This document shows positions 1,166-64,000 of a DNA stretch of 64,000 nt, piece after piece. Where the stretch lies: IMG/VR virus record IMGVR_UViG_2698536484_000026. The stretch is one strand, 5' to 3'. Position 1 is the first letter of the stretch. Each line of letters starts with the position of its first letter. Both the position numbers and the translations under genes were made by a program. The notes beneath the pieces are model-generated. The model ran no database searches, was not told the DNA's origin, and worked only from the letters and a program-made list of their open reading frames with translations. The stretch comes from a virus. Taxonomy: Duplodnaviria; Heunggongvirae; Uroviricota; Caudoviricetes.

Positions 1166-1166
1166 T

Positions 1167-6271: not shown

Positions 6272-6292
6272 TTTGTTCTGGCGTCTGTAATT

Positions 6293-9381: not shown

Positions 9382-9519
9382 GACAAGGGCCAAATGGCCC
9401 TTGTGTTTCGTTGACCGAAATAGAGAGTTTGCACCTTTACGTTTAGCTTGCTCCCCTTTTATGCCACATCACAATAAAGCCAATAAGAAAACAACTTGTT
9501 TAAGCATTAGGAAAAACAC

Positions 9520-10086
9520 ATGTGCAAGAAATGCAAAGCGATAGCTGATGAACAAAACGCCTTATTCGAAGAAATGGATGCTAATGAACTGGTCAAAATG
9601 TTAGCCATTCTTCGAGGAATAGAAGACGTTTCCATATTTGAGAGAGTGGTTACAGCACTTAATTATGAGTCCGCCTTTGAAGAGCCAACTCAGATTGTAG
9701 CTTTAGCACATCATTTCGGTGTTCATTATCTTGCTGAAAAAGAGAGAGCTGATAAGTTGCAAGCGACTTTGGATATGGTGAGCGAGACTCAAGGATCTCA
9801 TGACGGTAATAAAAGTGAGACGATTATTGCCAGCAAAGATCGTGAAATTGCCGGGCTTAAATCCTCTCTAACGATGTTGATGTCTGCAATTAACCTTATG
9901 TCTTCTAAAGCAGGTTATAAAATGCCATCACTAAACAGCGACGATCCGATGGCCGTTCGCCAGCTTTTAGGTGCAATGGCCGACCAGCTCGACGACACAA
10001 AGAGTCGCCTTGAAGACATGATGCGGGAGCTCACGCATCGCCATGACTTGAATAAGCAGCCGCACAAAACGCAATACGCACTCTAA
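9520..10086 (+). CDS. Hypothetical protein
   Basis: ORF preceded by conserved AAGAAAACAACTTGTTT motif and RBS; terminator hairpin 10104-10119 after it. Confidence 0.45.
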   Translation: MCKKCKAIADEQNALFEEMDANELVKMLAILRGIEDVSIFERVVTALNYESAFEEPTQIVALAHHFGVHYLAEKERADKLQATLDMVSETQGSHDGNKSETIIASKDREIAGLKSSLTMLMSAINLMSSKAGYKMPSLNSDDPMAVRQLLGAMADQLDDTKSRLEDMMRELTHRHDLNKQPHKTQYAL

Positions 10087-10227
10087 TACTGCACCAGTCG
10101 ACAGGGGGCGAAAGCCCCCATTTTTACGCCTTAAATCTGCTGTAACGCCTATGAATGCAGCTTTTATGCCTTTTCAAGTTTGCGATAATTACACCAATCA
10201 GAAAACAAATTATTTAATGGTGTAATT

Positions 10228-11913: not shown

Positions 11914-11974
11914 TAGGTAAATACTTACTTAATTTGTGTAAGAATGTAGTAACTAAACGAGAAGAGAAAAACAC

Positions 11975-12679
11975 ATGAGCAACCTCCAGTTAGAGCATTT
12001 TAACGTCACAGGCCGTTCTGATTTTTCTTTCAAGTTTACATTGAAAGGTTATGCAGAGGATGCGGTAGGCCAGATCATTATTGATAAAGGCATCGTTAAG
12101 TTTGAGGGGGATTTTGATGAATCCGCGAAAACATTCATAGACTTCGTTGCCAAACGTTGGAGCGAGCAATGGAAAGACCTGGAAAAGCGCGCTAATGAGT
12201 TTGATCGGTTCATGGATGCAATGGATACAGCAAAAGAGGCTCTTGCTGCCGGGACTCCGTTAGATCTGGAGTCACTTTTCAACGGCGAAGTGGCCTCTGC
12301 GATGTTCGCCACCATGTTCGCGGGTGAGTTCGTCCGCAGCGGTGCCAAAAACTACCTTGAGCTGGATTACAACGTCCCTGCAATTGGCGATTTCGTCGTT
12401 ACCATCCAACGCAAAGAAGGTAAGACGCCAGGTGAACGCGTCGCAGAGCTTGAGGCTGTTGTGGATCAGCGTAACGGAGAGTGTGACCGTTTGATCAACG
12501 AGCTTCATGCACTTCGGGAAGAAAGAATATGCGCGGGTAGCAATACACGTAATGCTGCGGATATCTACTTCCAGTTAGTTGAGGAATGCCAGATTCCACC
12601 AGGTGGCTCTCTTGTCGATTACGTCAGACATTTAATGGCGGAAGTTAACTCCAGCCATAAAGATGGTGAGGTGCGCTGA
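11975..12679 (+). CDS. Hypothetical protein
   Basis: ORF with RBS; stop overlaps next start. Confidence 0.45.
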   Translation: MSNLQLEHFNVTGRSDFSFKFTLKGYAEDAVGQIIIDKGIVKFEGDFDESAKTFIDFVAKRWSEQWKDLEKRANEFDRFMDAMDTAKEALAAGTPLDLESLFNGEVASAMFATMFAGEFVRSGAKNYLELDYNVPAIGDFVVTIQRKEGKTPGERVAELEAVVDQRNGECDRLINELHALREERICAGSNTRNAADIYFQLVEECQIPPGGSLVDYVRHLMAEVNSSHKDGEVR

Positions 12680-47729: not shown

Positions 47730-47999
47730 GTGTCGCCATTAGAGCTACTGAACGTTCCTCTCACGATGTTCTGGATGCTCAGTCGCAATATAGACCGTCT
47801 GCGTGCGGAAGAGGATGTCCGCAACTTACAAGTCGCTCGTGCGTCCCAGGCGGATGGCGAGGCTGTGAAGGCGTTCATGGAGGGTTTGCAACTCAGGATT
47901 GGAAGACCAGTCGTAACAGATAAAGTCTACGATCCAAGCCAGGATAAGGCAGACCCTGACGCCAAAGAGCAACTGATGCAAATATTTGGCAGAGGATGA
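47730..47999 (+). CDS. Possible gpT-like segment of a G/GT frameshift product
   Basis: -1 frame relative to 47332-47649 is open from 47613; overlaps tape measure start. Confidence 0.35.
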   Translation: MSPLELLNVPLTMFWMLSRNIDRLRAEEDVRNLQVARASQADGEAVKAFMEGLQLRIGRPVVTDKVYDPSQDKADPDAKEQLMQIFGRG

Positions 48000-50900
48000 C
48001 AAGGGAATGTCACAAAACGTAGAGTTTATCCTGTCGCTGGAAGACAAACAGTTTACAGCGTCAATCGATCGTGCGGGGAAACTGCTTACTCGATTTGGTG
48101 AGCAGGTAACAAAGCCTGCTCAAAAAATCCAAACCTTTGAACGCTCTTTGGGTTCGGTCGCCCGTATCATTGGCGTTCTGGAAAGCAAGCTCGATTCTAC
48201 GGCAGATAAACTACAGGATGTAGCTGCCGGTTTTGAGCTTGCTTCAGATGCTACGCGTAAAATGCGTGGCAACATCACCAGCCTCAATTCTGGTCTTAAA
48301 GCCCTGATTGAGCGCGTCGATACGACAACTTCTTCAGTAGATAAACTCACCGCGTCATTACGTAAAGTGCAATCAGAGCTAAATGATTTCTCTGATTGGG
48401 CGACCTATGCAAGCAAAAGCGCAAGCCGCTTTGGTACGGAGGTCAAAGAAGCCTCTGCGTCCGTGAGTGGCATGAATACGCGCCTTAATACCACGACGAA
48501 GCGACTCAGTAATTGGGGTGTCACAACGAGTCAGGCTGCCGAGGGACTGAAAAAGGTTCGTGAGCAGATGGACGAAGTTATCGGACGTCAGCAACTGATT
48601 AGCAAGCCGGTACGCGTTCGTACATCTGGAAGTGGCGATGGTGGTAGCGGGCGGCGTAGCGGCGCTTCTGGCCATAGCGGTAAAAGTAACGAAGGAGGTA
48701 TGTTCTCTGGCCTTCGTGGCAACATTTTCCTGCTTGGCGAGATCGGAGATGCAGCCAGAACGGTTACTGACATCATGTTTGGGTGGCAGAAGCCTATTGT
48801 TGAAGCTGCGGCCGAAATGGAACGTATGCGGGTGATGCTTCGAGGGTTGAATAAGGAGAAGTCCAACCCGGGCCAGGCTGCCGCTGATGATATGAAGTAC
48901 ATCGTAGACATGGCTCAAAATGCGCCGTTCGCGATGCAGGCGTTAACAGACTCCTTCGTGAAGTTTCGTTCTGCTGGCTTAGATCCAACCGATGGTTCTC
49001 TGAAGGCGCTGGTGGACTCCGTTGCTCGTTTTGGTGGTGATAGTGAGCTGTTGAAACGTGCGGCTGTGGCCGTTCAGCAGATGTCCGGTAAGGGCGTTGT
49101 GTCAATGGAAGAGCTACGTCAGCAATTAGGTGAAGCCGTTCCTAACGCGATGCAGGCAATGGCAGACGCCGCAGGCATCACTATGGGGGAACTGACTAAA
49201 GCCGTTGCCAGCGGTACGGTTGAGGCAAAACAGGCGTTGTCTCTGATGTTTGTTGGTCTGCGTGCGGAGAATGAGAACGCAGCGAAAGACATGATGCAAA
49301 CCTACACAGGTGCGCTGGCGCAACTTCAGACGTCATTCACGTTATTTGCTGATCGGGTTGGTCAGGCCGGATATCTGGATTCTCTATCGAAGGGGATGAA
49401 AGAACTGGCTTCAATCATGAATAGCGCCGAAGGGATTTCGTTTGCCAATTCTTTAGGTTCGGGGTTAACAACGGCAATCGATGGGTTGCGTCAGCTTGCT
49501 CAATGGTTAGCAAAGAACCAAGAGCTGGTAATTAATCTCGGTAAGGTCGTGGCCGCGATGGTTGCGTTCAAACTGATGCGAGCAGGGATCATGGGGGTAG
49601 TTGGCGCAGGCAGCCAGATGGTTAGCACCTTTGCCACGATGGCGACAGCCATACAGACTCCATTTAACCTCGGCGCTACAGCAGTAACCCGATTCAATCG
49701 TGCGGCACGTATGGAGCTGGCTCCGATCCCCTCTCTTATTTTCGCCATCCGTGGGGCGATTACGGGGCTTAAAGGCGCTTTTGCTGGATTAACGGCGTTC
49801 ATTGCAGCAAACCCTATAGGGGCAGCATTTACAGTTGCCACTGTAGCTGTTGCTGGCCTAATCACGTACATGACCATGCTCCGCAGCGAAACTTCAAAGG
49901 TCGTTGACGAGATTAGGAAAATACCAGAAGCGATGACAGCGGCCAAACGTGCACAGATGGCGGAGTATAAAGCGCGTCTTGAGCAACAAATCACGCAAAA
50001 GGAACAAGAGTTAAAATCTGGCGAAAAGGTGGTTTATGGGCCGGGTATGGCCGGAACTACAGTAAAGATTAATCAGGATGAACGTAAGCGTATAGAAAAT
50101 GAGCTAAATGACCTTCGTAAGAAACGCGATAAAACTACTGGGGCAATTGAACGCGGAGACATTGCTGTAGCCAAACGTCTTGCAAAAGATGCGGCAGAAT
50201 CACAGATAGAGAAAATACGGGAAGAGAATAGAGACTTTGCGGCAACATTCGTGAAAGCCCGGCAGGAGGCTCTGGATAAGATCCAGAAAATCAATGATGA
50301 CGGTTCACTTTCAGATGACGAAAAGAACAAGCTATTGGCACCGTTACGTGAAACGGTAAACAAAAGCTATCTGGAGCCTGCGCAAAAACTGGTTGATTCA
50401 CTTTCTTCTCGTAAGAATGCGACCGAGAAGCAAATTGCGACTCTTAATGATCAGCTTGAAAAAGCCAAAAAGGATGGAAATACCGAGCAGATCCAGAAAC
50501 TGCAAGGCAGTATTCGTGGTTATCAGGAGCATTTGGAAGCCGTTGCTCAGGAGCTGACTCAGGCAGAGTTCGAGAGAGATAACGCGGCCAAAACTGGTAA
50601 GGGCGTAATGTCAAACCAGGGGACTGTTCTTGGGTTAGGTACAACTGATAAAGCTGCTCAGAAGGCGCTGGCGCAATATATGCGAAACCAGATGGATTCT
50701 GCGACTTATCAACGTACTTTGCCTGACGGCACTCCGATGATGGACTTCGAAGGTAAGCCGATTATTGGGCCTAAACAACTCAAGACGCAGCTTAATTTGC
50801 AGAAAGCATCCAGCGCCAGCTCTCTGGAGAAAATGAGCGATGAAGAGCGTGCCGCAGCTATTGCTGCACTGACTAAAGCTCGTGAACAGGATGCAGCAGC

Positions 50901-52584
50901 TGCCGAGAAAGCAGCCCAACGATCAGCTAACGCCTCGCAGCGTGCGGCCAAGAAGGAACAGGCAGCGCAACAGAAACTGGCAGCCGGATACCAGAAGGCT
51001 CTGGACAAAGCCGATCAGCTTATGGGGCAAATGGGTGAAAGCTCTAAGGCTACGGTATCGTTTGATCAGTCTCTTCGCGATACAACGAAATCGCTGACAG
51101 ATTTGGCTAATGCGGTTCCTAACGAGTTCATCACTCAAGAGATGATCGACAAGGCGAAAAAACGTCTTGAAGACCTCAAAAATGCGACACCTGAATATCG
51201 CGAGATGTTTAATCGCCGCAATGTTGAGCAGATGATCTCCACCTGGGCACCGGAGTCGGATTCCATTATTAGTGCTGGCTATACGCCGTCTCGCGAAGAT
51301 AAAGTTGCTGATTTCGAAGACACCTACAACCGCAATCTCAAAGCGTTGATAGAACTTCGTGATAAGGCGTCTGATCCTAAAGTTGTGGCGCTTTATACAA
51401 AGAAAATCAATCAACTGATTGCTGCTGGCAATACCGCGCTTATTAAAGAGACGGGGACTGCGACGCAGAAGTTGGCACTGGAATACGAAAACCTGGCAGA
51501 GCAGATCGAAAGCACCTGGACTGATTTGTTTAGTGGCTTAACTGATGTCCTGACTGATTTCGTTATTAACGGGAAGATGAGCTTCTCCAGCCTATCTCAG
51601 TCCATTTTGAAAGATATCACCAATATGGTCGTGAAGTCGCAGATCACGCTGCCTCTAATGAACATGTTGGGAATGGGAACCACCGCAGCTGGTAGTTCAC
51701 AGAGTGGTAATTTGCTCACCGGGGTTGCTTCCGCAGTTGCCAATCAAGGTGTGCGCATAAGCAACACTGTTAATGGCGACAAGTCGGTAGGAGAAGCCAC
51801 GAAGGAGACGTCCAGTTCGGTAACTGGATTGGGGCAAACGACACAGCAGACCACCAGCGCAATTGGCACAGCAACAAATGCGATTGGTAGCTGGGTATCA
51901 GGGCTATTTAATAGCACCGAAGCCAAAGATGCTGAGACAAAAGCAGTGAAGGACTCCATCTTCTCGATGCAGAACCTCAGCTCTGTTACCGGCGCTCTGT
52001 CTGCCGCGTTTGCAATGCTTGGAGCTAATGCTTCCGGCTCTGGTAATAAGTGGTTGAATTTCGGCGCGACAGTTGCATCTGGTTTGGTTTCAGTATGGGC
52101 TGGTGGTGGATTCGATGGATTGATGTCCGGTTCTTCTGGCTCAACTTCCGGGTTCAACAATCTGACCAGTTCTGCTGCCGATGGCACGAATGGTATTCCT
52201 GCAATTCCGAAGTTTGCAAATGGTGGCATATTCGGAAAAGACGGCGTGATCCCGCTCCGGGCATACCAGAAAGGCGGTATCGCCAACTCACCTCAATTGG
52301 CGTTGTTTGGGGAAGGCGATATGAATGAGGCGTATGTTCCATTGCCTGATGGTCGAACAATCCCTGTAACGCTCAGTACCGATGGTATGAGTGGAGGAGG
52401 AAATGTTCTTTCTCCTGTATCAATTGAGATCAACGTCCATAGTGACGGTAGCACAACTGAATCCGGCGATACAGAAAGCATATGGAACAATGCCGCTCAA
52501 CGGATGAAAGCAATCGCGCTTGAGACTATCGCTCAAGAGAAACGCCCTGGCGGATCACTCAACCCAAACACTCAACGTAACTAA
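47986..52584 (+). CDS. Tail tape measure protein
   Basis: 1532 aa, coiled-coil and Gly/Ala-rich hydrophobic segments, upstream of M/L/K/I/J. Confidence 0.85.
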   Translation: MAEDDKGMSQNVEFILSLEDKQFTASIDRAGKLLTRFGEQVTKPAQKIQTFERSLGSVARIIGVLESKLDSTADKLQDVAAGFELASDATRKMRGNITSLNSGLKALIERVDTTTSSVDKLTASLRKVQSELNDFSDWATYASKSASRFGTEVKEASASVSGMNTRLNTTTKRLSNWGVTTSQAAEGLKKVREQMDEVIGRQQLISKPVRVRTSGSGDGGSGRRSGASGHSGKSNEGGMFSGLRGNIFLLGEIGDAARTVTDIMFGWQKPIVEAAAEMERMRVMLRGLNKEKSNPGQAAADDMKYIVDMAQNAPFAMQALTDSFVKFRSAGLDPTDGSLKALVDSVARFGGDSELLKRAAVAVQQMSGKGVVSMEELRQQLGEAVPNAMQAMADAAGITMGELTKAVASGTVEAKQALSLMFVGLRAENENAAKDMMQTYTGALAQLQTSFTLFADRVGQAGYLDSLSKGMKELASIMNSAEGISFANSLGSGLTTAIDGLRQLAQWLAKNQELVINLGKVVAAMVAFKLMRAGIMGVVGAGSQMVSTFATMATAIQTPFNLGATAVTRFNRAARMELAPIPSLIFAIRGAITGLKGAFAGLTAFIAANPIGAAFTVATVAVAGLITYMTMLRSETSKVVDEIRKIPEAMTAAKRAQMAEYKARLEQQITQKEQELKSGEKVVYGPGMAGTTVKINQDERKRIENELNDLRKKRDKTTGAIERGDIAVAKRLAKDAAESQIEKIREENRDFAATFVKARQEALDKIQKINDDGSLSDDEKNKLLAPLRETVNKSYLEPAQKLVDSLSSRKNATEKQIATLNDQLEKAKKDGNTEQIQKLQGSIRGYQEHLEAVAQELTQAEFERDNAAKTGKGVMSNQGTVLGLGTTDKAAQKALAQYMRNQMDSATYQRTLPDGTPMMDFEGKPIIGPKQLKTQLNLQKASSASSLEKMSDEERAAAIAALTKAREQDAAAAEKAAQRSANASQRAAKKEQAAQQKLAAGYQKALDKADQLMGQMGESSKATVSFDQSLRDTTKSLTDLANAVPNEFITQEMIDKAKKRLEDLKNATPEYREMFNRRNVEQMISTWAPESDSIISAGYTPSREDKVADFEDTYNRNLKALIELRDKASDPKVVALYTKKINQLIAAGNTALIKETGTATQKLALEYENLAEQIESTWTDLFSGLTDVLTDFVINGKMSFSSLSQSILKDITNMVVKSQITLPLMNMLGMGTTAAGSSQSGNLLTGVASAVANQGVRISNTVNGDKSVGEATKETSSSVTGLGQTTQQTTSAIGTATNAIGSWVSGLFNSTEAKDAETKAVKDSIFSMQNLSSVTGALSAAFAMLGANASGSGNKWLNFGATVASGLVSVWAGGGFDGLMSGSSGSTSGFNNLTSSAADGTNGIPAIPKFANGGIFGKDGVIPLRAYQKGGIANSPQLALFGEGDMNEAYVPLPDGRTIPVTLSTDGMSGGGNVLSPVSIEINVHSDGSTTESGDTESIWNNAAQRMKAIALETIAQEKRPGGSLNPNTQRN

Positions 52585-52626: not shown

Positions 52627-52962
52627 ATGGAAAGACAAACGTTTAATTGGTATCCAGATTACGAATCTGAAAAAAGCGTAAAACCGAATGTAACGGTACT
52701 TAATTTTGGTGATGACTACGAGCAGCGACAGGCTCAAGGTCTTAATCGTATTAAAGAAGAATGGTCGTTAACCTTTACCAGATCATACAACGAAATTAAT
52801 GCAATCGATGACTTCCTGACTGAGCGAGCAGGCGTTGAGTCGTTCTATTGGGTTAATCCAAGAGGAAAACGGATTGTAGTTGTATGTGACAGTCATACGG
52901 TCAAGCGATATCAGGGGTACTGTGTCTTAACTGCTACATTCAGACAAGTATTTGAGGCTTAA
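52627..52962 (+). CDS. Minor tail protein (lambda gpM-like)
   Basis: FGDDYEQR and SFYW align with lambda M (FGDGYSQR, SFLW); 111 aa. Confidence 0.75.
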   Translation: MERQTFNWYPDYESEKSVKPNVTVLNFGDDYEQRQAQGLNRIKEEWSLTFTRSYNEINAIDDFLTERAGVESFYWVNPRGKRIVVVCDSHTVKRYQGYCVLTATFRQVFEA

Positions 52963-53011: not shown

Positions 53012-53743
53012 ATGTTAGCGCCTACTTATTTCAAGGATGAAACAATGGGAATTAAAGCTGATATTCAGAGCTTATCTCCCTCTGCACTCATTGAGTTGTT
53101 CGTACTGGATATGTCGAACACAACTTCAGGGGGGAAGTTATTCTTCCACGCCGGAACAAACGAACTGATGCAACCGGTCGTCTGGCAAGGAGTGACATAC
53201 GAGCCGTGGCCAATCAAAGCATCAGGCTTTGACAAAACTGGCCAGGGAACGTTGCCACGTCCAAAAATTCAGGTATCGAACTTTGCCGGAACCGTCTCTG
53301 CGGAAGTTCAGGCGAACGACGATCTTGTTGGCTGCCGCATTATTCGCAAGATGACGCTGGCTCGCTTCCTCGATGCCGTTAATTTTAAAGACGGCAACCC
53401 AACAGCAGATCCAAACCAACATTTCCCGGATGAAATGTGGTTTATCGAACAGAAAACTCTCGAAACTCATCAGGTTGTCGAGTTTGAATTGTCCAGTGTG
53501 TTCGATTTGATGGGGGTGCAACTGCCGTATCGTCAGATCATTAAAAACACCTGCCCGTGGAAATACCGAGGGCCAGAATGCGGCTATACCGGTCCATATT
53601 TCGACAAAAATAACCAGCAGACGTCTATGTCTGGTGCTGATTACTGCACAAAACGTTATGACGCCTGTAATGCGCGTCGGAATTATTTTGCCAACGGAGT
53701 GATCCATTTTGGCGGGTTTATTGGAGCTACGCGATATGGGTAA
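53012..53743 (+). CDS. Minor tail protein (lambda gpL-like)
   Basis: WQG.TY.P.PI..SGF, ARFLDAVNF, NTCPWKYRGPECGY, FGGF align with lambda L. Confidence 0.8.
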   Translation: MLAPTYFKDETMGIKADIQSLSPSALIELFVLDMSNTTSGGKLFFHAGTNELMQPVVWQGVTYEPWPIKASGFDKTGQGTLPRPKIQVSNFAGTVSAEVQANDDLVGCRIIRKMTLARFLDAVNFKDGNPTADPNQHFPDEMWFIEQKTLETHQVVEFELSSVFDLMGVQLPYRQIIKNTCPWKYRGPECGYTGPYFDKNNQQTSMSGADYCTKRYDACNARRNYFANGVIHFGGFIGATRYG

Positions 53744-54533
53744 TAAAGCAATCCCTGAGCTTGGCTCTGATGTTATGCAGCAAATCTATCTCTGCGCCAT
53801 AAATCGCTACCCTAATGAAGCGTGTGGCTTTCTGGTGAGAACTAATGGCGACAAATATCGCTTTATGGAAGCGCGAAATGTTTCGGAGAACCCGCAGAAC
53901 ACTTTTGTAATGCACGTTGACGACATTATGGCGGCAGAGGATGCAGGTGACGTAATCGCAATCTGGCATTCACATACTGATGAATCAGCAGAAGCATCTG
54001 ATGCCGATCGTGCAGGCTGTGAAGCGACGGAAGTTCCGTGGATGATTCTGGCTATTCGCAAGAATGTTGAGGGAGATGCCCCTTTCCATTTTAGCGAGAT
54101 GAATGTGATCACACCTGATGGTTTCGAAATGCCATACCTGGGTAGACCGTATGTATTTGGCGTATTCGATTGCTGGATGTTGTGTCGGGACTATTTGAAG
54201 CGTGAGTTTAACGTCGAGCTTAACCCGAACGCACACCTGCATATTCCATCGTGGTACACCGGCGATAACGACATTCTCGACCAGAACTACCGAAACGAGG
54301 GATTGGTACGGCTTGCACCTGGAACAGAGCCTCAACGTGGGGACGTCTTCTTTATTCAATACGGGAAAATGCCAGATCACTGCGCGGTTTATATCGGCGA
54401 TGGAATGATTCTTCATCACCAGATCGACCGTCTTAGTTGTCGTGCTTATTACGGCGGAATGTATCAGAAACATACGACGCATCACTTGCGTCACAGAGAC
54501 TTGCTCAAGGGAGATGAGACGTGTCTGAGTTAG
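53709..54533 (+). CDS. Tail tip assembly protein (lambda gpK-like, MPN/JAB plus NlpC/P60)
   Basis: YPNEACGFLV and AIWHSHTDESAEASDAD (JAB/MPN); C-terminal Cys/His domain. Confidence 0.75.
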   Translation: MAGLLELRDMGNKAIPELGSDVMQQIYLCAINRYPNEACGFLVRTNGDKYRFMEARNVSENPQNTFVMHVDDIMAAEDAGDVIAIWHSHTDESAEASDADRAGCEATEVPWMILAIRKNVEGDAPFHFSEMNVITPDGFEMPYLGRPYVFGVFDCWMLCRDYLKREFNVELNPNAHLHIPSWYTGDNDILDQNYRNEGLVRLAPGTEPQRGDVFFIQYGKMPDHCAVYIGDGMILHHQIDRLSCRAYYGGMYQKHTTHHLRHRDLLKGDETCLS

Positions 54534-55114
54534 TTCATGTGCAGCTTGGCGGCCCTATGGCCAAACATTTTGGCCGCCACTGGCATCTAAAGGTGCGCAA
54601 TACAAAACAGGCTCTGGATTTAATTGAGGCCAACAAGCCTGGGTTTAAAGCATGGATGAAGCGCAATATCAAAACCTATGACCGTTACCACATCCAGATC
54701 ACCAATAAACAGGGCCACAAGTGGTCTGTTGACGAAAGTGAATATCAGATGATGGGGCAGTCTGACAACATTGCCAAAATCCGCATTACACCTGTTCCGC
54801 GAGGAAGCGGTGGATCTGCTTTTGGGTGGTTTCAGACGGTAGTAGGGGCCGCTTTGTTGGTTGTATCGGCGGTAGTGATGCCTGCTTTAGCACCTCTCGG
54901 TTTGTCACTGATGATGGGCGGCATATCACAAATCATATCGCCGCAAGCCACTAACGAAAGTGTGAGACAGGCAGATAACTCGAACTCTTATTATTTCGAC
55001 GGCCCTCAAAATACAGAAAACCAGGGCAACCCAGTACAACTTATCTATGGCGAGGAAATTCTGGTTGGCTCACAGGTTGTGAGTTCTTCAATCACGATTG
55101 ACCAGCTAATGTAA
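54521..55114 (+). CDS. Tail assembly protein (lambda gpI-like)
   Basis: Position between K and J; hydrophobic segment VVGAALLVVSAVVMPALAPLGL. Confidence 0.65.
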   Translation: MSELVHVQLGGPMAKHFGRHWHLKVRNTKQALDLIEANKPGFKAWMKRNIKTYDRYHIQITNKQGHKWSVDESEYQMMGQSDNIAKIRITPVPRGSGGSAFGWFQTVVGAALLVVSAVVMPALAPLGLSLMMGGISQIISPQATNESVRQADNSNSYYFDGPQNTENQGNPVQLIYGEEILVGSQVVSSSITIDQLM

Positions 55115-55125: not shown

Positions 55126-58100
55126 TTGAACATGGAACAGTTCAAGAAGAAAAAGCTACCGCTGTTTATTGCCGGTGCGGGTGGTAAAAAAAGCAGCAAA
55201 AGCTCCAGCCGTACACCGGTTGAAGCCGACGATACCGTAAATTCTCGTGCAATGGCCGCTATCCTCGATCTTCTTGGGGAAGGGGTAATTGGCGGCTTAG
55301 TAAATGGCGCAAGATCTATTTTTATCGACGATCTGCCGATTGTAAATGAAGACGGTTCCTCCAACTTCAGCGGAATCACATGGGATTTTCGCGACGGTTC
55401 ACAAGACCAGACTCCAATGTCTGGCTTTGATTTCGTTGAAACGCCTAAATCCGTCAATATCCAGTTAAAAAAAACACATTATGTAACGGTTTCAATCGAT
55501 AACGATGAAGCTGATCGGGTTCGTGTCATCATGAAGTTTCCTTCTTTGCGAAGCATAGATAAAAAAACTGGTGACACGAACGGTACGACTGTTGAGTACA
55601 AGTTCCAGATAGCAAATGGCGACTCAACATTTGTAGATGTGGTCGCGGAAGGTGAAAAAAGCGTTGGCATTAAGCTAACAGCAAAGAAGACCGGCGTTTA
55701 TTACCGTAGCTACGAGCTGAAGCTGCCTAAGCCTGGACGCGCATACAAGGTTCGTGTAGTCCGTATTACCGATGATAACAGTAGCCAGTATCTCTATAAC
55801 GATACATGGGTGGATTCAATCGGGGAAATTGTCGATACACCGATGAACTATCCAAACTCTGTTTTGGTTGGATTGAAGGTAAACTCTGAGCAATTCGGCA
55901 GCACCATGCCATCTCGCTCTTATCTGGTGCGTGGCCTAAAAATTCGAGTACCTTCAAACTATAACGAGTCAAGTAACACTTACGCTGGGGTATGGGATGG
56001 TACTTTTAAGCTGTTGTCTTCTTCGAACCCCGCGTGGATTCTCTTTGATTTGCTGACCAATGCTCGATATGGCCTTGGTCAGTATGTGTCGGAATCTATG
56101 ATTGACCTTGGCCAGTTGTACCAGATTGGTCGATATTGTGACGAAGAGGTCGATGATGGCTTTGGTGGCAAAGAGAAACGCTTTGCAATCAATACGCAGA
56201 TCACCAGTCGACAGGACGCATACCGGCTAATTCAGGATATTGCTGGAGCATTCCGCGGCATGGTGTTTTGGGCTGGTGGGATGGTTAACATCATGCAGGA
56301 TAGCCCATCAGATCCGGTAATGATGTTTACCAACTCTAACGTCAAAGATGGATTGTTTACCTATAAAGGTTCTGCGCGTAAAGATCGCCCATCCGTTGCG
56401 CTCGTAACCTACAACAACAAGGAGGACGGTTATAAGCAAAACATCGAGTACGTTGAAGATCAGGACGCAATGCGCCGTTATGGTGAGCGTAAGACAGAAG
56501 TCGTAGCATTTGGCTGTACAAGCCGAGGGCAGGCTCACCGAGTTGGTTTATGGCTTTTATATACCGCCAGAATGGAGTCGGATGTAATTACATTTACTGC
56601 CGGCTTAGACGCGTCATTTCTGATGCCTGGTGAAACCGTTCTGATTCAGAACAAATATCGCGCAGGCAAACGTAACTCAGGTCGAATTGTGGCGTTTACC
56701 AAAAACAGCGTCACACTCGATGCGCCTGTGTCGTTAGCCAAAGGCGGCTGCTTTATTCGAATACTGAATCAGGAAGGCAAAATCGTTGAACGCGATGTTC
56801 TTGAAACTGGCGAAAATATAACAAAAGTTACGTTTTCAAAAGCCCTGTCTTCGGCTGAAACGCCTGTTTTGAACGGCGTCTGGACTATTACAGAACCAGA
56901 CCTCGAACCTATGCGCGTTCGCATCGTTAACATCGCGCAGGGGGAAACGCCGGGTAGCTTTGACATCACCGCTGTTGAGAACAATCCGTCTAAATATGAG
57001 GCGATCGACAATGGTGCAACGCTTATCCCGCAAAATACGACGGTATTGGACCCGACTTACTCCAAGCCGTCTAATTTGCAAATCACCGAAGGGACTTATC
57101 TCTCAAGCCCTGGCAACCTGTCAGTAAAACTGACTGCAACATGGGAAGGGAAATCTCCAGAGTATTGGATCAGTTGGCGACGTTCTGATGAAAACAATGT
57201 ATCGAACTGGCAATCGGCGCGTGTAACCGAAGAGCAATACGAAATCGTTAATGTTGCGGAGAATGGACGCTACGACTTCCAGCTGTATGCGGTTTCATTC
57301 AACGGTAAAAAAACAGAGATTATCAGTACCGTTTATCAGGTGCTGGGCACAATGACACCGCCAGATGCCCCAACGTCATTAACGGCCGTTGGAGACTATC
57401 GTAATGTGATACTGAATTGGGTTAATCCAGATTCGGTAGACCTTGATCACATTAATGTTTACGCGTCCCAGACCAATAATCTGGATACGGCGAAACTGAT
57501 CGCAGAGTCTGCAAGCACCACCTTTACACATGCTGGTCTTGGGGATAGCGAAACGTGGTATTACTGGGTTCGAGCATCGAACAAGCGAGGTATGTTAAGT
57601 CCTCCGAACTCAAACTTGGGTACAGAGGCGACAACTCGCGATGTACTGTCGTTCCTGACTGGCAAAATTACATCTTCCGAGCTTGGTCAGGCTCTGCTTG
57701 AGGACATCAACAGCAAAGCCTCTCAAGAAGCCGTTGACGAGTTAAATGAGCATATCAACCAGAGCGTCGAATCTTTGGAGGGGGCGGTAAACGACGTTAA
57801 GGAAGATATAGCTGAATTAGATAAGCAGTTCAGCGATAACCTCGCGGATTTTGAAATAAAATTCAACGAGCGTAGCGATGCTTTGGAGAACGCACAAACC
57901 GAGCTTAAAGGTGAGGTTTCGGCAACGATCGACAAGGTCAATGAAGCGTTTGAAAAAATTGATGCTACTGATGCTGCAATTGTTGAAATCGAAAATACCG
58001 TATCTGAACACGATAAAGCTCTCGCTAATACAGTCGAGGCAATAAAGGCTGCAAGAGATGAAGCGGCGGCTCTTATTGCTAAGGAAAGCGAGGCTCGTGT

Positions 58101-59859
58101 TGAAGGTGATGCTGCAAACGCTAAACAACTGGAAGTGTTGCAGTCAACGGTAGAGGAAAGCTCCGCTGCCGTTGAAGAAATGAAAAAGACGGTTGCAGAG
58201 GTCGATCGTGCCAGTGCAGAACTGACTACGAACATTGAGGCTTTGGCCAAAACAAATATTGACCTGGCTCTTCGTCAAGATGAAGACCAGCACAAGCAGA
58301 TGGTCAATAACGCGAAGATCGCAACAACACAGAAAACCTTTGCTGATGATATGTCTGCAATGGCCACGAAGGTTGAGGAAATTCGCGTAGAAATTGGCGA
58401 AGACATTAAGGCCAGTATTCTGGAAGAGTCCACCGCTCGTGCCGATGGCGATGAAGCGTTGGCAAAGCGTGTCACTCAGCTGCAATCTAAGTTTGAAGGA
58501 GATATCAGCGCGGCGATTAGTACAGAGCAGGAGGCTCGTACATCTGCCGATGAAGCTCTGACGACACAGATCACTCAGCTTGAGTCGAAAGTAAGCAACG
58601 ATATCGTCGCAGCTATTAAGGAAGAGCAAGAAGCCCGAGCAACGGAAGATTCGGCTCTGGCAAGCCAGATCACCCAACTTCAGGCAAAGGTTGATGATGA
58701 TATTTCTGCTGCAATACGTAGTGAGCAGGAGGCCCGAGCAAGCGGGGACTCTGCGTTAGCCAAACAAATAAACCAGCTTCAGTCAAAGGTTGACGGTGAT
58801 ATATCCGCTGCCATCACTCAGGAGCAGGAGGCCAGAGCAAGTGCTGACCAGGCGCTCTCACGAGAAATTAACAGCCTGCGAGCACAAACCGGAACTGATA
58901 TTGCCGCAGCGGTTGCTGTAGAGACAAAGGCAAGGACTGATGCCGATAGTGCATTGTCCACTCAGATTTCGTCTCTTACAGCAAAAGCTAATGATCTCGA
59001 GGCATCTCTTGCCAGAGAAACAACGGCTCGTGCTGATGGTGATACCGCTTTAACAAAAGAGGTTTCAAGTTTAAAAGCACAGACAGCGAAAGATATTAGT
59101 GCGGCCGTTGCAGTTGAAACGCAGGCTCGAACTGATGCTGACTCGGCGTTGTCGTCTCAGATCACCAAGCTGACCTCTCAATACAAAGAGGATATTAAAG
59201 CGGCTGTAGCAACCGAAACGAAAACGCGTACAGAGCAAGATGCTGCATTGGCGACTCAAATCACAAACTTAGAGTCTCAAACGGCAGCCAACATTTCCGC
59301 GGCGGTAACAACTGAAACGACAGCGAGAACGCAGGCAGATAATGCTCTGAGTGGGCGAATCGATACTCTGAAAGCAGAGGTGGATGGAAATACCGCGACA
59401 ATTCAACAGCAGGCAACAGCTATTGCTGATACCAACAAAAAAGTGTCAACCGCGTGGACGTTGAAAATGGAGACTTCAACGAGCGGAGGGCAGAAGTATG
59501 TTGCCGGTATTGCGCTTGGTATTGACACCACTGGGCTATCTCAGTTTTTGGTTCAGGCGGACAGGTTTGGTTTGGTCAACTCTGTTAACGGGAAGATCAC
59601 AACGCCATTTGTTATCGAAAACAGTATCGCCTATATGAATGGAGCGTATATCAAGGATGGCACAATCACCAATGCAAAAGTAGGCGATCTGCAATCTACC
59701 AATTTTGTTAGCGGTAGATCTGGATGGCGATTCGGCAAAAATGGAACGCTTGAGATCAACGGTAATAGCGGCGGCAATGGGCGACTGGTCATAAATGGTC
59801 AGCGGATTGACGTTTATGACGATAACAACGTCCTACGAGTAAGAATTGGCCTTCTGTAA
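55126..59859 (+). CDS. Tail tip/host specificity protein (lambda gpJ-like) with C-terminal tandem coiled-coil repeats
   Basis: YPNSVLVGLKVNSEQFGS, GVWDGTFK, FGCTSRGQAHRVGLWLL, GQKYVAGIALGIDTTGLSQFLV align with lambda J. Confidence 0.85.
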   Translation: MNMEQFKKKKLPLFIAGAGGKKSSKSSSRTPVEADDTVNSRAMAAILDLLGEGVIGGLVNGARSIFIDDLPIVNEDGSSNFSGITWDFRDGSQDQTPMSGFDFVETPKSVNIQLKKTHYVTVSIDNDEADRVRVIMKFPSLRSIDKKTGDTNGTTVEYKFQIANGDSTFVDVVAEGEKSVGIKLTAKKTGVYYRSYELKLPKPGRAYKVRVVRITDDNSSQYLYNDTWVDSIGEIVDTPMNYPNSVLVGLKVNSEQFGSTMPSRSYLVRGLKIRVPSNYNESSNTYAGVWDGTFKLLSSSNPAWILFDLLTNARYGLGQYVSESMIDLGQLYQIGRYCDEEVDDGFGGKEKRFAINTQITSRQDAYRLIQDIAGAFRGMVFWAGGMVNIMQDSPSDPVMMFTNSNVKDGLFTYKGSARKDRPSVALVTYNNKEDGYKQNIEYVEDQDAMRRYGERKTEVVAFGCTSRGQAHRVGLWLLYTARMESDVITFTAGLDASFLMPGETVLIQNKYRAGKRNSGRIVAFTKNSVTLDAPVSLAKGGCFIRILNQEGKIVERDVLETGENITKVTFSKALSSAETPVLNGVWTITEPDLEPMRVRIVNIAQGETPGSFDITAVENNPSKYEAIDNGATLIPQNTTVLDPTYSKPSNLQITEGTYLSSPGNLSVKLTATWEGKSPEYWISWRRSDENNVSNWQSARVTEEQYEIVNVAENGRYDFQLYAVSFNGKKTEIISTVYQVLGTMTPPDAPTSLTAVGDYRNVILNWVNPDSVDLDHINVYASQTNNLDTAKLIAESASTTFTHAGLGDSETWYYWVRASNKRGMLSPPNSNLGTEATTRDVLSFLTGKITSSELGQALLEDINSKASQEAVDELNEHINQSVESLEGAVNDVKEDIAELDKQFSDNLADFEIKFNERSDALENAQTELKGEVSATIDKVNEAFEKIDATDAAIVEIENTVSEHDKALANTVEAIKAARDEAAALIAKESEARVEGDAANAKQLEVLQSTVEESSAAVEEMKKTVAEVDRASAELTTNIEALAKTNIDLALRQDEDQHKQMVNNAKIATTQKTFADDMSAMATKVEEIRVEIGEDIKASILEESTARADGDEALAKRVTQLQSKFEGDISAAISTEQEARTSADEALTTQITQLESKVSNDIVAAIKEEQEARATEDSALASQITQLQAKVDDDISAAIRSEQEARASGDSALAKQINQLQSKVDGDISAAITQEQEARASADQALSREINSLRAQTGTDIAAAVAVETKARTDADSALSTQISSLTAKANDLEASLARETTARADGDTALTKEVSSLKAQTAKDISAAVAVETQARTDADSALSSQITKLTSQYKEDIKAAVATETKTRTEQDAALATQITNLESQTAANISAAVTTETTARTQADNALSGRIDTLKAEVDGNTATIQQQATAIADTNKKVSTAWTLKMETSTSGGQKYVAGIALGIDTTGLSQFLVQADRFGLVNSVNGKITTPFVIENSIAYMNGAYIKDGTITNAKVGDLQSTNFVSGRSGWRFGKNGTLEINGNSGGNGRLVINGQRIDVYDDNNVLRVRIGLL

Positions 59860-59951
59860 TGTAGAAAAAAATATTTATATCGGTAAAAATAAGTAGGTAC
59901 ATACTTAATGGTGGGCAAGGATAGCCCACCAAATCAAGGAGCATATTCAAC

Positions 59952-62900
59952 ATGTGGTACAGGGAAGGTACTATCACATTTACACAGGGCAGCAATACTC
60001 TGGTTGGGGCAGGGACAGCCTGGAACGTAACAGCTAATGGTGTGTTGCCGGGGATGATCGTCATTGGCCCCGACAATAAGCTGTATGAGATCAAGCGCGT
60101 AACCAGTGATACGAACATTGTTCTCTCAGAACCTTATACCGGCGAAACTCAGTCTGAAGTTCCGTGCCGAATCATTACGACCTATGAAGGCGACTTAACA
60201 CAGTTTAGCGCGCGCTTTACTGCACTAATGTCGCGTATGTCGGCTGATTCCAAGTCCATGCGCAGTTGGTTGACTGCTCTGGATGAGGTGACAATCGAGC
60301 GTGAAGACGGTACAGAAGTGACCGTTAAGCCGCTAATGCAGATCGTCAACGAGCACAACGAAAACGTTGAGTGGTATAAAAATAACACTGACGCGATTGA
60401 TGCTGCTGGCGACAAAGCTCGTGAGGCGGCGGCCAGTGCTGCCGCAGCAGCAGAAAGCGCCAATACCGCTGGAGAAAAAGCCTCTCAAGCGTCTCAAAGT
60501 GCATCCGCTGCGGCATCCTCACAAAGTGCTGCAAGTGCGAGCGCAACTGCTGCGAAAAAATCTGAAACGAACGCACAAGCCGCAAAAGAAGCGGCAGCAG
60601 AATCAGCATCTGTAGCGTCGGCCAAAGCATCGGAGGCAGCAACATCTGCGTCCAGTGCCTCTGCATCTAAGGATGCAGCCAAAGCATCAGAGACTAACGC
60701 TTCATCGAGCGCAAACGCGGCAGCATCATCGGCAACAGAAGCTGCAAATTCGTCTAAGGCAGCAAAAACGTCAGAGGCAAACGCAAAAGCATCTGAAACG
60801 GCAGCCGAACAGAGTGCATCGTCTGCAAACAGTTCGAAATCTGCGGCAGAAGCGTCAGCAAGCGCAGCCTCAGCAAGTGCGGATAGTGCTTCATCAAGTG
60901 CAACAGCGGCAGGAAAATCTGCGGATAGCGCATTGTCATCAGCGACAACAGCTACCACAAAAGCGACAGAGGCGACGAGTCAGGCTACAGCTGCTAAAAA
61001 TTCAGCATCGGCAGCAAAAACCTCTGAAACAAATGCAAAGACTTCAGAAGACAATGCTGCTTCCTCTAAGGCGGCAGCTGCTGAATCTGCAAGTTCTGCG
61101 TCTGCATCAGCCTCCTCAGCATCCGCTTCAAAAGATGAGGCGACCAAGCAGGCATCAGAAGCGAAGGGCAGTGCTTCAACGGCATCCACGAAAGCAACAG
61201 AGGCGGCAGGCAGTGCGACGGCTGCATCTCAGAGCAAAACTGCTGCTGAATCCGCTGCGACCCGTGCGGAAGCTGCTGCTGATCGTGCTGAAGAGATTGC
61301 CGGTGCAGTTGCGATGGAAGACGCAAGCCTTACAACTAAAGGTGTTGTGAAACTTAGCAGTGCTGTCGATAGCACCAGTGAATCGCTGGCCGCAACGCCA
61401 AAAGCAGTTAAAGCAGCCAATGACAATGCGAATAGCAGGGTGCCATCTAACCGAAAAATTAACGGAAAAGCACTGACTGCGGATATAACATTAACGCCGA
61501 AAGATATTGGTACTTTAAATTCAGTAACGATGTCTTTCTCTGGCGGGGCTGGGTGGTTCAAACTGGCTACGGTTACCATGCCACAAGCGAGTTCCATCGT
61601 TTACATCACATTGATTGGTGGTGCTGGATATAATGTTAACTCCCCTATGCAGGCTGGTATATCTGAACTTGTTCTTCGTGCGGGAAATGGAAATCCAAAA
61701 GGTCTTACTGGTGCGTTATGGCGAAGGACATCGGTTGGATTTACTAATTTTGCATGGGTGAATACATCCGGCGATACATATGATATTTATGTTGAGATTG
61801 GCAATTATGCGACGAGTGTAAATGTCCACTGGGATTGTACTGCAAATGCGTCAGTTTCTATTTATACATCGCCAACATATTCAGCGAGTAAGCCTGCCAG
61901 CGTTACCGATGGTGTTGTTTATACGATGTATAGCTCACATCAGAAACCTACGCCATCAGATATTGGAGCACTGCCAACAACCGGAGGAACAGTTTCTGGT
62001 CCGTTGTCTGTTACAGGCGGATTAACTGGTTCATTGAATGGTAATGCAAGTACAGCAACGAAATTACAGACGACAAGAACTATCGGTGGAGTTGGTTTCG
62101 ACGGTTCTGCCAATATTAATCTTCCAGGTGTAAACACTACGGGTAATCAGAACACCACTGGTAATGCCGCAACTGCTACAAAACTACAGACGGCAAGAAC
62201 TATCGGCGGCGTGAGCTTTGATGGTACTGCAAATATTAATTTGCCAGGTGTTAATACGACTGGTAATCAGAATACAACAGGTAATGCGGCTACTGCTACG
62301 AAGTTGCAGACTGCGCGTACTATCAATGGGGTGTCGTTTGACGGCTCGGCAAATATTTCCTTGTCGCCAGCAAATATAGGTTGCCCGGCATCTCCTACTG
62401 GTTGGTTAACTACAGGAAGTAATGGCGGAGCAATAACAACAGCCCAGTTAGTGACGTTATTGCAAAATAATGGAGCCTTTAACACAAAGGCATGGATTGC
62501 TCGATGTGCGTGGGCCTATGCCAATAGCGCAACCATACCAAATAGTGAAACTGGTTGTGGCGTTATTCCATTGGCAGGAGCTGTTATAGAAGTATTTAAT
62601 AACGGTAGTAGTTCAAATAATTATACGATCCGCATAACAACGGCCACAACGACAAGTGTTTCCGGTGCTCTCACTAATGCGGAGTTTATCTATGTATTTA
62701 ATGGCACAGATTATTCTCCAGGATGGCGAAGAGTATATAACACGAAAAACAAACCAACTGCATCTGACGTTGGTGCATTACCTCTTACCGGTGGTACATT
62801 ATCTGGAGGTTTGACATCTTCTGGTGAGATCGTTTCAAAATATGCAAATGGTTTCCGCATTGCTTACGGTAGCTTTGGGTTCTTTATCCGTAATGACGGC

Positions 62901-64000
62901 GGCAGCACATATTTCATGCTAACAGCATCAGGAGATACGTTAGGTTCATGGAACGGCTTGCGACCGATTACAATTAATAATACTAGCGGTGTTGTGTCTA
63001 TTGGTAATGGACTAAATGTTACTGGTGGCATAAATGGTAGTTTGAACGGTAATGCTTCAACAGCTACGAAGTTGCAAACAGCGAGAAACATCAATGGTGT
63101 TAAGTTTGATGGCTCAGGCGATATCAACATTAATACATTGGTATCTCGTGGCCGAGTTACGGCGTTAAGCGGCTCTACTCAAGGCACTGCTGGCATTCAA
63201 ATGTACGAGGCGTACAACAATAGCTATCCGACCACGTATGGCAACGTATTGCACATGAAAGGTGCGAGTGCTGCTGGCGAGGGTGAGTTGCTTATTGGCT
63301 GGAGTGGTACGAGCGGTGCACATGCGCCGGTTTTCATTCGCTCCCGAAGAGATACCACTGATGCAGCATGGTCAGCGTGGGCACAGGTATATACCGCTAA
63401 GGATTCAATCCCTGGTGTGAATACAACTGGTAATCAGAACACTACTGGTAATGCCGCAACCGCCACAAAATTGCAGACAGCAAGGAAAATTGCTGGTGTG
63501 GCGTTTGATGGCTCTGCCGATATCAACCTGCCGGGTGTAAACATTGCTGGTAACCAGAACACAACCGGTAATGCAGCGACAGCGACCAAGTTGCAGACAG
63601 CATGTACTATCAACGGCGTCTCGTTTGATGGTTCTAAAAATATTGAGCTAACGGCGGAAGATTTAAATCTTGAGCAAACCGTAGAATTAGCCGCTGGATC
63701 ATTGCAAAAAAACCAGAACGGCGCGGATATTCCTGATAAAGATCGCTTCCTGAGTAACATTAATGTTTACAGCAAAGGCGAAGTGGATAAGAAAAAAGGA
63801 ATGCGGCAGTACGCATTTAATGCGCCGTCTAATGCAGTTGGTGGAAAGTGGTATCCAGTTATTTTCCGGCGTTCCACAGGCAGCACTGGCGAGCTGGCTT
63901 CCAGAGTGATTATAACGACCACATCTGCCGGTGGTAATTACGAAATGAATAACTGCGAATTCAATGGAATGGTAATGCCTGGTGGCTGGACTGATCGTGG
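59952..64000 (+). CDS. Side tail fiber protein (partial, 3' end beyond window)
   Basis: No stop through window end; Ala/Ser-rich region, KGVVKLSSAVDSTSESLAATPKAVK motif, repeated GNAATATKLQTARTINGVSFDGSANI units. Confidence 0.75.
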   Translation, partial: MWYREGTITFTQGSNTLVGAGTAWNVTANGVLPGMIVIGPDNKLYEIKRVTSDTNIVLSEPYTGETQSEVPCRIITTYEGDLTQFSARFTALMSRMSADSKSMRSWLTALDEVTIEREDGTEVTVKPLMQIVNEHNENVEWYKNNTDAIDAAGDKAREAAASAAAAAESANTAGEKASQASQSASAAASSQSAASASATAAKKSETNAQAAKEAAAESASVASAKASEAATSASSASASKDAAKASETNASSSANAAASSATEAANSSKAAKTSEANAKASETAAEQSASSANSSKSAAEASASAASASADSASSSATAAGKSADSALSSATTATTKATEATSQATAAKNSASAAKTSETNAKTSEDNAASSKAAAAESASSASASASSASASKDEATKQASEAKGSASTASTKATEAAGSATAASQSKTAAESAATRAEAAADRAEEIAGAVAMEDASLTTKGVVKLSSAVDSTSESLAATPKAVKAANDNANSRVPSNRKINGKALTADITLTPKDIGTLNSVTMSFSGGAGWFKLATVTMPQASSIVYITLIGGAGYNVNSPMQAGISELVLRAGNGNPKGLTGALWRRTSVGFTNFAWVNTSGDTYDIYVEIGNYATSVNVHWDCTANASVSIYTSPTYSASKPASVTDGVVYTMYSSHQKPTPSDIGALPTTGGTVSGPLSVTGGLTGSLNGNASTATKLQTTRTIGGVGFDGSANINLPGVNTTGNQNTTGNAATATKLQTARTIGGVSFDGTANINLPGVNTTGNQNTTGNAATATKLQTARTINGVSFDGSANISLSPANIGCPASPTGWLTTGSNGGAITTAQLVTLLQNNGAFNTKAWIARCAWAYANSATIPNSETGCGVIPLAGAVIEVFNNGSSSNNYTIRITTATTTSVSGALTNAEFIYVFNGTDYSPGWRRVYNTKNKPTASDVGALPLTGGTLSGGLTSSGEIVSKYANGFRIAYGSFGFFIRNDGGSTYFMLTASGDTLGSWNGLRPITINNTSGVVSIGNGLNVTGGINGSLNGNASTATKLQTARNINGVKFDGSGDININTLVSRGRVTALSGSTQGTAGIQMYEAYNNSYPTTYGNVLHMKGASAAGEGELLIGWSGTSGAHAPVFIRSRRDTTDAAWSAWAQVYTAKDSIPGVNTTGNQNTTGNAATATKLQTARKIAGVAFDGSADINLPGVNIAGNQNTTGNAATATKLQTACTINGVSFDGSKNIELTAEDLNLEQTVELAAGSLQKNQNGADIPDKDRFLSNINVYSKGEVDKKKGMRQYAFNAPSNAVGGKWYPVIFRRSTGSTGELASRVIITTTSAGGNYEMNNCEFNGMVMPGGWTDR

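Follow-up and report, generated by a model that had tools for sequence, protein, structure and literature searches.

The J-like central tail fibre (tip attachment) gene of the caudoviricete IMG/VR record IMGVR_UViG_2698536484_000026 encodes a tandem array of ten units of 33 amino acids (aa), which probably is an expansion of the helical shaft of J that is metastable and would refold to a β-prism to open the tail. The window analysed, i.e., the whole stretch of DNA, is 64,000 nucleotides (nt) long. In it the gene (55126..59859, + strand) forms an open reading frame (ORF) of 4734 nt, stop codon included, which starts with TTG and encodes 1577 aa. It is 99.3% identical at the nucleotide level to the gene annotated as 'tail host specificity protein J' in Escherichia phage Cyrano, which is the SSU5-like phage-plasmid pLF82 of E. 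coli LF82; J is not discussed in the paper on that phage (PMC9928086). The array (58423..59409, + strand; aa 1100-1428) is, as judged from its sequence, homologous to the coiled-coil shaft of the central fibre of the F2 and F7 pyocins, and its nature as a coiled-coil shaft is well supported.

The repeats are evident from the protein compared with itself. In aa 1100-1428, the identity is 0.48 at a lag of 33 residues, 0.38 at 66 and 0.30 at 99, with 0.11 at a lag of 32 and 0.06 at 34, while the best lag in 2000 shuffles of the same residues averages 0.149 and reaches 0.197 at most. Ten consecutive units start at aa 1100, 1133, 1166, 1199, 1232, 1265, 1297, 1330, 1363 and 1396 (nt 58423, 58522, 58621, 58720, 58819, 58918, 59014, 59113, 59212 and 59311, + strand); nine of them are 33 aa long and the sixth has 32 aa. 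Six residues, E2, R6, D10, A12, L13 and L20, are invariant across the ten units and A5 and A30 nearly so, giving the consensus xETxARAxADxALxxQITxLxSKxxxDISAAxx. The initial annotation, made from the sequence alone, had placed about ten near-periodic 32-aa coiled-coil units at 58420-59400. The tandem repeats are real, and their number, the consensus string and, to within 3-9 nt, the coordinates agree with the present analysis; the period has to be corrected from 32 to 33 aa.

Among DNA copies of the unit, the mean identity is 51% and the maximum is 70%, and the same codon is used in 35% of identical residue pairs. Tandem Repeats Finder reported no repeat in the DNA within 58.4-59.4 kb because the units are only 51% identical at this level, and this blank is not counter-evidence to the repeat. 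The low DNA identity together with the differing codons points to an old array that has been preserved by selection at the protein level. An explanation in which the array has no structural role, being low-complexity or recent slippage-prone DNA that serves only as a hypervariable or antigenic-variation region, might appeal to the copy number, which differs among relatives, and to the variability of the repeat region, which in SSU5-like phages exceeds that of all other parts of the protein. It is hardly credible, however, in view of the 51% DNA identity with mostly different codons, the six invariant positions, the presence of the unit in 1388 representative protein clusters, and indels that always comprise whole units and keep the register.

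The copy number was compared among relatives with a hidden Markov model (HMM) of the unit, and the differences are by whole units: ten tandem units in this J, ten in that of CMS-2020a (SCU-175), nine in that of Escherichia phage PhiR41_1 and five in that of Salmonella phage SSU5. The J proteins of PhiR41_1 and CMS-2020a (SCU-175) share 99.8% identity, a single indel of exactly 33 aa being the difference in length, and alignment of this J to that of SSU5 leaves gaps of 66 and 98 residues. Across the four SSU5-like J proteins, the core and the C-terminal domain are 83-100% conserved, and the proximal shaft and the repeats 27-64%. The orthologous genes (nucleotide identity of 99.3% for Cyrano, 97.7% for CMS-2020a, 83-89% for PhiR41_1 and 78% for SSU5) have the same architecture, and their records read 'tail host specificity protein J' or 'tail protein' with the repeats unmentioned. 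A literature search for an earlier description of the repeat, under DUF1983, coiled-coil or repeat, gave nothing relevant; the 33-aa tandem organization and its whole-unit copy-number variation are without mention in the literature examined.

The closest relationships of the array are to central fibres of solved structure. A HMMER search of the J-like protein against the sequences in the Protein Data Bank (PDB) retrieved the central fibre of F2 pyocin (E = 9.5e-155) and J of phage λ (E = 2.3e-124), and the C-terminal 718 aa match T1 gp33 (9l9p_S, E = 3e-29), the F2 pyocin (25vf_A), gp56 of Pseudomonas phage DEV (9ze4_N) and λ J. Residues 1244-1549 align with residues 884-1193 of the F2 central fibre (25vf_A, E = 7.4e-25). 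Within this alignment units 8-10 lie on residues 978-1076, with a residue-for-residue match that includes a Glu-Arg salt bridge, core Leu and Ile residues and small corner positions. Like this J, the F-type pyocin central fibre (F7, F2; PA0641; PDB 25vf) has a J-type hub and FNIII core followed by a long helical shaft before the PF09327 domain. Structures of the F2/F7 shaft show three strands in a coiled coil (PMC13455828; bioRxiv 2026.02.24.707460), and in F7 pyocin 163 residues refold from the coiled coil into a triangular β-prism, by which the tail is opened (He et al., PMC12874032). This switching segment (about five units in length) is not described as a repeat, whereas the present J has ten clean units and about 240 further helical residues; moreover, the pyocin is a tailocin, while the element studied here is a DNA-containing temperate phage-plasmid.

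The strands of the F7 prism each carry the pattern SxSxxMxxLxS, with alternating direction. The small residues at the 'S' positions make the corners of the packed prism and are exposed in the coil, and the 'M' positions are often Glu or Asp, in a salt bridge to an Arg four residues off. Substitution by Gln at A987, A995, V1010 or A1017 abolishes killing while assembly is unaffected, and A998Q and A1011Q are without that effect (PMC12874032). Both directions of this pattern are found in the array. The forward copy occupies positions 12-22 (A12-x-[AST]14-x-x-I17-x-x-L20-x-[SA]22) in all ten units, and the reverse copy runs from position 30 to position 7 of the next unit (A30-x-[IV]32-x-x-E2-x-x-A5-x-[AT]7) at all nine unit junctions. 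A reverse copy is joined to the forward copy after it by four residues (x-[AG]-D-x), and the forward copy is followed by a linker of seven residues rich in Asp, Gly and Asn. A scan with the motif as a regular expression gives 26 matches in the array, compared with 5.5 ± 2.2 (maximum 13) in shuffles. The six mutated or control residues of F7, as well as E1039 and R1043, are identical in F2 at the same numbers and hence could be carried through the HMMER alignment to F2. The four sensitive residues A987, A995, V1010 and A1017 then map to unit positions 14, 22, 5 and 12, all of them S positions previously assigned from the motif alone, and the controls A998 and A1011 map to positions 26 and 6, outside the S positions. 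The salt bridge between E1039 and R1043 has its counterpart in E2-R6, invariant in the ten units, and L1050 and I1054 of the coiled-coil core correspond to L13 and I17. A survey of 675 distinct units taken from 175 other proteins shows Ala, Gly, Ser, Thr or Val at the six S positions with a frequency of 95-100%, although these units were chosen by an HMM built from this J and are thus biased towards its consensus.

Several features point to a helix as the state of the array in the assembled particle. Residues 862-1428 contain much Ala and Glu and no proline. Hydrophobicity within the array peaks with equal strength at periods of 3.65 and 2.05 residues, the latter being a β period. Unit positions 2, 6, 9, 13, 17, 20, 24, 28 and 31 follow a 4-3-4 pattern that sums to 33, with no S position among them; nine core positions per 33 residues correspond to three hendecads, or 3.67 residues per turn (33/9), and the canonical heptad period of 3.5 (7/2) is not matched by the helical peak of the array at 3.65. 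An AlphaFold2 (AF2) monomer model of aa 1232-1577 computed without an alignment shows one helix over aa 1233-1443 with pLDDT above 90. With an alignment of 68 sequences, the helix stops at aa 1409 and is followed by β strands from aa 1413 onwards (mean pLDDT 80.7). The only segment that changes state between the runs, approximately aa 1410-1443, covers the residues aligned to λ J 841-861. The coiled-coil nature of the repeats, proposed in the initial annotation, thus finds support in the absence of proline, in this structure prediction and in the homology to the solved trimeric pyocin shaft. Since the runs are monomeric, they show helical propensity and neither support nor refute a trimeric prism of the repeats. 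A Foldseek search of the model against the PDB gave as best hits the open-state central fibre of λ J (8xcj/8xci), matched via the C-terminal β domain, and also SU10; the matches were limited to that domain, and no post-ejection pyocin prism was retrieved.

The repeats might instead be β from the outset, as a β-prism or β-helix that extends the PF09327 fibre, the predicted helix being an artefact of monomer modelling. The strand-turn-strand-turn architecture of the motif with its Gly/Asp/Asn-rich linkers would fit such a fibre, and AF3 gives a β-prism for 30% of related phage central fibres (He et al., PMC12874032). Nevertheless, three independent cryo-EM studies of assembled pyocin before ejection show the homologous shaft as a coiled coil, and the invariant E2-R6-D10 ladder with its i/i+4 spacing is a helical feature, as are the lack of proline, the abundance of Ala and Glu, the 3.65-residue period and the confident helix in the models. 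A constitutive β structure is thus very improbable.

Comparison with λ J shows where the shaft has grown. BLASTP aligns aa 20-861 with λ J 2-835 (32% identity, E = 6e-116, 876 columns) and aa 1422-1510 with λ J 841-931, so that about 560 residues (aa 862-1421) are inserted between λ residues 835 and 841, and the ten units make up the distal 330 of them. The insertion relative to λ J claimed in the initial annotation is therefore confirmed, with the difference that the repeats are only the distal part of a longer helical segment following the J core. What had been taken for a short C-terminus beyond them is a full conserved central straight fibre β domain (PF09327, Phage_Tail_Tip; 59398..59802, + strand; aa 1425-1559; E = 1.4e-41, profile positions 1-138 of 139), homologous to λ J 845-972. 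The α-helical shaft (AHS) of λ J, residues 809-861, consists of three helices between the FNIII domains and the β-prism central straight fibre, and 21 of its residues, 841-861, switch from helix to β upon LamB binding (PMC11101478). As the insertion point lies inside this AHS, the present protein can be described as a J whose shaft is lengthened about tenfold (about 585 aa compared with about 53 aa in λ). Core, FNIII domains, shaft and central straight fibre come in the same order in λ gpJ (PDB 8IYK, closed; 8XCI/8XCJ, open), and the 21 switching residues of λ align with aa 1422-1442.

The end of the protein differs from that of λ J, which terminates in a LamB-binding Ig domain, PF12421 (Ig_GpJ_C). 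No Pfam match to PF12421 at E ≤ 0.1 was obtained in the J-like protein, whereas the same test finds the domain in λ J (1001-1132, E = 4.5e-74). In the present protein 18 aa follow PF09327 (...VLRVRIGLL); this short end (59803..59856, + strand; aa 1560-1577, ...IDVYDDNNVLRVRIGLL) is common to T1 gp33 and DEV gp56, and the C-terminal alignment extends to residue 1167 of 1172 in T1 gp33 (9l9p_S) and to residue 426 of 429 in DEV gp56 (9ze4_N). The initial annotation considered the λ-type receptor-binding C-domain as apparently replaced. The domain is indeed absent, but relatives such as P0016 (Citrobacter) carry the units, PF09327 and PF12421 (346-480 in P0016) all in one chain, which indicates that they are independent modules and that the repeats are not a replacement for the receptor-binding domain.

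Upstream of the array, the proximal non-tandem part of the helical shaft (57709..58422, + strand; aa 862-1099) is likewise proline-free, with 16% Ala and 15% Glu. Its hydrophobicity has a single peak at 3.56 residues, consistent with 32/9, and is essentially without the 2.05 peak. Forward and reverse motif matches alternate in it at aa 950, 965, 982, 997 and 1014 with spacings of 15 and 17 residues, which gives a small number of degenerate motif pairs at intervals of about 32 aa, and these motifs (aa 950-1024) are probably decayed 32-aa units. A weak 64-aa autocorrelation and one isolated unit-HMM match at aa 987-1011 are also observed in this region. While aa 871-1020 are variable among relatives, aa 1021-1110 form a conserved island inside the shaft (58186..58455, + strand) with 72-87% identity among the four SSU5-like J proteins, compared with 27-64% in the flanking shaft, and contain the acidic stretches QDEDQ, FADDMS and EIGEDI. 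The island is the best candidate for a docking site of the side fibres; alternatively, it could be a non-coiled-coil insertion like that described in the F2 pyocin shaft.

The side tail fibre gene (59952..64000, + strand) begins 92 nt after the stop codon of J (intergenic 59860-59951) and runs past the end of the window, encoding at least 1349 aa. When nt 59952-60401 were used as query, aa 2-107 (nt 59955-60272) matched residues 3-104 of the F2-pyocin side fibre (25ve_A) with a phmmer E of 3.7e-4, and a profile of 13 sequences gave E = 2.5e-5 over residues 3-74, a weak match of N-terminus to N-terminus. In F2 pyocin, the N-terminus of the side fibre (PyoF13/PA0646) includes an OB-like shaft-docking domain, and the side fibre docks on the shaft (PMC12874032; PMC13455828). 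The corresponding N-terminus is 78-86% conserved in SSU5, PhiR41_1 and CMS-2020a. By analogy to the pyocin, its likeness weakly suggests that the side fibres of this phage might be docked on the J shaft as well. In unit 6 (58918-59013, aa 1265-1296), the second half departs from the consensus (AKANDLEASLA), and the acidic kink DDADDGNG of the pyocin, the side-fibre attachment site in F2/F7, aligns by HMMER just after this unit, at ARADGDTAL. This region is unlikely to be the docking site, since SSU5 is without it and has the same side-fibre N-terminus; the island at aa 1021-1110 is a better candidate.

On the basis of these likenesses, the following course of events may be proposed. In the virion, three J chains would most likely form a parallel, proline-free coiled coil, in which the repeats would span about 49 nm (0.15 nm for each of 330 aa) and the whole segment of aa 862-1421 up to about 84 nm, with an invariant buried E2-R6(-D10) charge ladder within a hendecad-like core; we infer this trimeric geometry from the pyocin. 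Each unit would be a helix segment in one state and a β-hairpin (strand, four-residue turn, strand, seven-residue turn) in the other. As a metastable spacer, the shaft would keep the distal fibre tip off the tail, and it would probably bear the side fibres through the putative pyocin-type docking domain encoded by the downstream fibre gene. Upon irreversible receptor engagement, the shaft might refold from its distal end to a much shorter β-prism, which would release the FNIII closure and open the tail tip; the precedents are the 21 residues of λ J and the 163 residues of F7 pyocin. The whole-unit copy number would then set both the reach of the fibre and the size of the conformational change. 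In its fullest form, this proposal takes the 33-aa unit as a metamorphic module of nine helical turns or one β-hairpin, expanded or contracted by whole units, with a switch of about 330 aa and with side fibres carried on the shaft, and in this form it is possible but somewhat doubtful.

The main rival to refolding is a static length-setting spacer. In this case a stable trimeric coiled coil would determine how long the fibre is, for example for reach through O-antigen or capsule, and would serve as a platform for side fibres, while tail opening would be driven elsewhere, e.g., by a λ-type rearrangement limited to the last ~20 helical residues. The AF2 helix, continuous and confident for units 5-9 with and without the alignment, the flipping in prediction of only the segment homologous to λ 841-861, and a whole-unit copy number that varies freely between near-identical phages, as for length tuning, would all be in keeping with such a spacer. 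On the other hand, a plain spacer does not need six coil-exposed positions per unit to be limited to small residues family-wide, and enlarging those same positions kills the activity of F7 pyocin. The 2.05-residue β-type hydrophobic period is, moreover, a property of the array and not of the upstream shaft. A purely static shaft is therefore considered unlikely.

A metastable shaft that refolds remains the preferred interpretation, and several points weigh against it. Neither this J nor any SSU5-like tail tip has a solved structure, and the tail-tip structure of T1, the nearest phage to have one, leaves the homologous C-terminal part unresolved. The motif test is not independent across units, since these are copies of one another, and the survey of small residues carries the bias towards the consensus mentioned above. 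Units 5-9 are helical in both AF2 monomer runs, which give no direct support for the β state. The pyocin shaft is mostly heptad-based (bioRxiv 2026.02.24.707460), as opposed to the 3.67 residues per turn expected of a 33-aa period, and the geometry may differ. A switch of 330 aa would be twice the largest one yet observed, and the F7 study (PMC12874032) is a preprint. The similarity of the side fibre to that of the pyocin is weak, and no small tip-adhesin genes such as PyoF11/F12 or DEV gp54/gp55, which might provide the trigger, adjoin J in the window; in F-pyocins (PyoF11/F12) and DEV (gp55/gp54), genes of this type come after the J-like gene, which in Drexlerviridae is flanked by them.

The remainder of the protein and its genomic neighbourhood identify it as J-like, as in the initial annotation. 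The core (55126..57708, + strand; aa 1-861), with the hub and FNIII domains, aligns with λ J in BLASTP and is 90-100% conserved among the SSU5-like relatives; by Pfam, it includes FNIII-A_GpJ (PF24801, aa 104-238, E = 1.5e-29), Phage-tail_3 (PF13550, aa 360-523, E = 7e-34) and fn3 (aa 747-826). Upstream of J lie ORFs at 47986-52584, 52627-52962, 53012-53743, 53709-54533 and 54521-55114, the tape measure and four small tail-tip genes, which are M, L, K and I according to the annotation of the syntenic genes of SSU5 and PhiR41_1. The position of J after the tape measure, M, L, K and I matches that of a λ gpJ-type protein in a siphovirus tail module. The tape-measure ORF (+ strand) encodes 1532 aa from a TTG start; for Cyrano, 1525 aa and a measured tail of 259 nm have been reported (PMC9928086). 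Antisense ORFs on the - strand at 57723-58250, 58144-58677 and 59071-59259 (62-177 aa) are rejected as genes, being low-complexity, mechanical by-products of the Ala/Ser/Glu-rich coding strand. The side-fibre gene is a mosaic. Beyond its pyocin-like N-terminus, a λ-Stf-like, Ala/Ser-rich low-complexity stretch at about 60.3-61.4 kb gives rise to spurious ORFs on either strand, aa 907-1008 form a T4 Gp34_trimer domain, and tail-fibre repeats of 40 aa (period of 120 nt) occupy 62040-62357, with similar ones near aa 1200-1290.

The unit is widely distributed. A search of 1.84 billion representative proteins with its profile gives 1388 matches at E ≤ 1e-3, of which 93 reach E ≤ 1e-30. The most frequent unit spacing in the family is 32 aa, followed by 33, 36 and 39 aa. 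A metagenomic J-like protein of 2138 aa with PF24801, PF13550 and PF09327 (P0144) has 20 consecutive units at 32-33-aa spacing. The present array is long without being extreme, and the unit itself is common. The metagenomic proteins P0144-P0153, between 1300 and 2850 aa in length, give 19-26 unit matches each; in two of them (P0145 and P0146), which have no J domains in Pfam, the units alternate with 80-aa spacers, indicating that the unit is also used in other fibre contexts. A tblastn search of isolated phages with the repeats and C-terminus gave 1793 records, including T1-like and Klebsiella siphoviruses, phi80 and Pseudomonas N4-like phages. T1 gp33 (PDB 9L9P; Drexlerviridae) has the same unit type (EVIATETEALSREIDQLKAQIGDDIQASLTDIR), the same PF09327 domain and the same ending (...LRVQIGR), but its aligned stretch shows only about three units, compared with ten here. 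Its C-terminal 350 aa were not resolved, and AF3 predicts a 37-nm α/β fibre (T1 tail-tip structure paper). Receptor binding in Drexlerviridae has been proposed for the product of a gene flanking the J-like gene (DEV paper). In the N4-like podovirus DEV, the short tail fibre gp56 (PDB 9ZE4) combines coiled-coil units with the same C-terminal end module; unlike this J, it is 429 aa long, lacks the J hub and is attached laterally to the tail plug. It has been described as a structural adaptor that bears separate receptor-binding proteins (DEV paper).

The SSU5-like Klebsiella phage vB_KpnS_p4727 (PQ492289.1 43000-68000, nt 294-12452) has a J-like ORF of 4053 aa whose core is shared as far as the beginning of the shaft. 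Unrelated sequence of about 3000 aa, with repeats of its own, comes next, and a few units and PF09327 complete the protein; the next gene has a related side-fibre N-terminus (31% identity). Its J retains units and PF09327 despite the divergence of the DNA from the start of the shaft, and co-occurrence of shaft and side fibre is therefore non-discriminating in this phage.

The array is a long, cleanly modular example of a known shaft device and not a new device. It bears on the source of the energy by which non-contractile tails open and breach the outer membrane, and the same sequence device is now seen in a real, inducible phage-plasmid of E. coli of the Cyrano/SSU5 type. When J-like proteins are annotated, the 'repeat region' that many of them have should be taken as shaft and not as the receptor-binding part, and the absence of PF12421 implies that receptor recognition by this J is unlike that of λ. 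If the proposed switch is real, it would extend over about 330 aa in the SSU5/Cyrano lineage, twice the 163 aa of F7, with metagenomic J proteins reaching 20 units, and side fibres would hang on the shaft of the central fibre, an attachment so far known only from F-type pyocins. The natural alleles of five, nine and ten units, together with the pair that is 99.8% identical except for one unit, constitute a genetically tractable length series, which bears on the switch in phages, on its scaling with unit number and on the docking of side fibres on the shaft. The natural variants that differ by one unit could then show how stored conformational energy scales with length.

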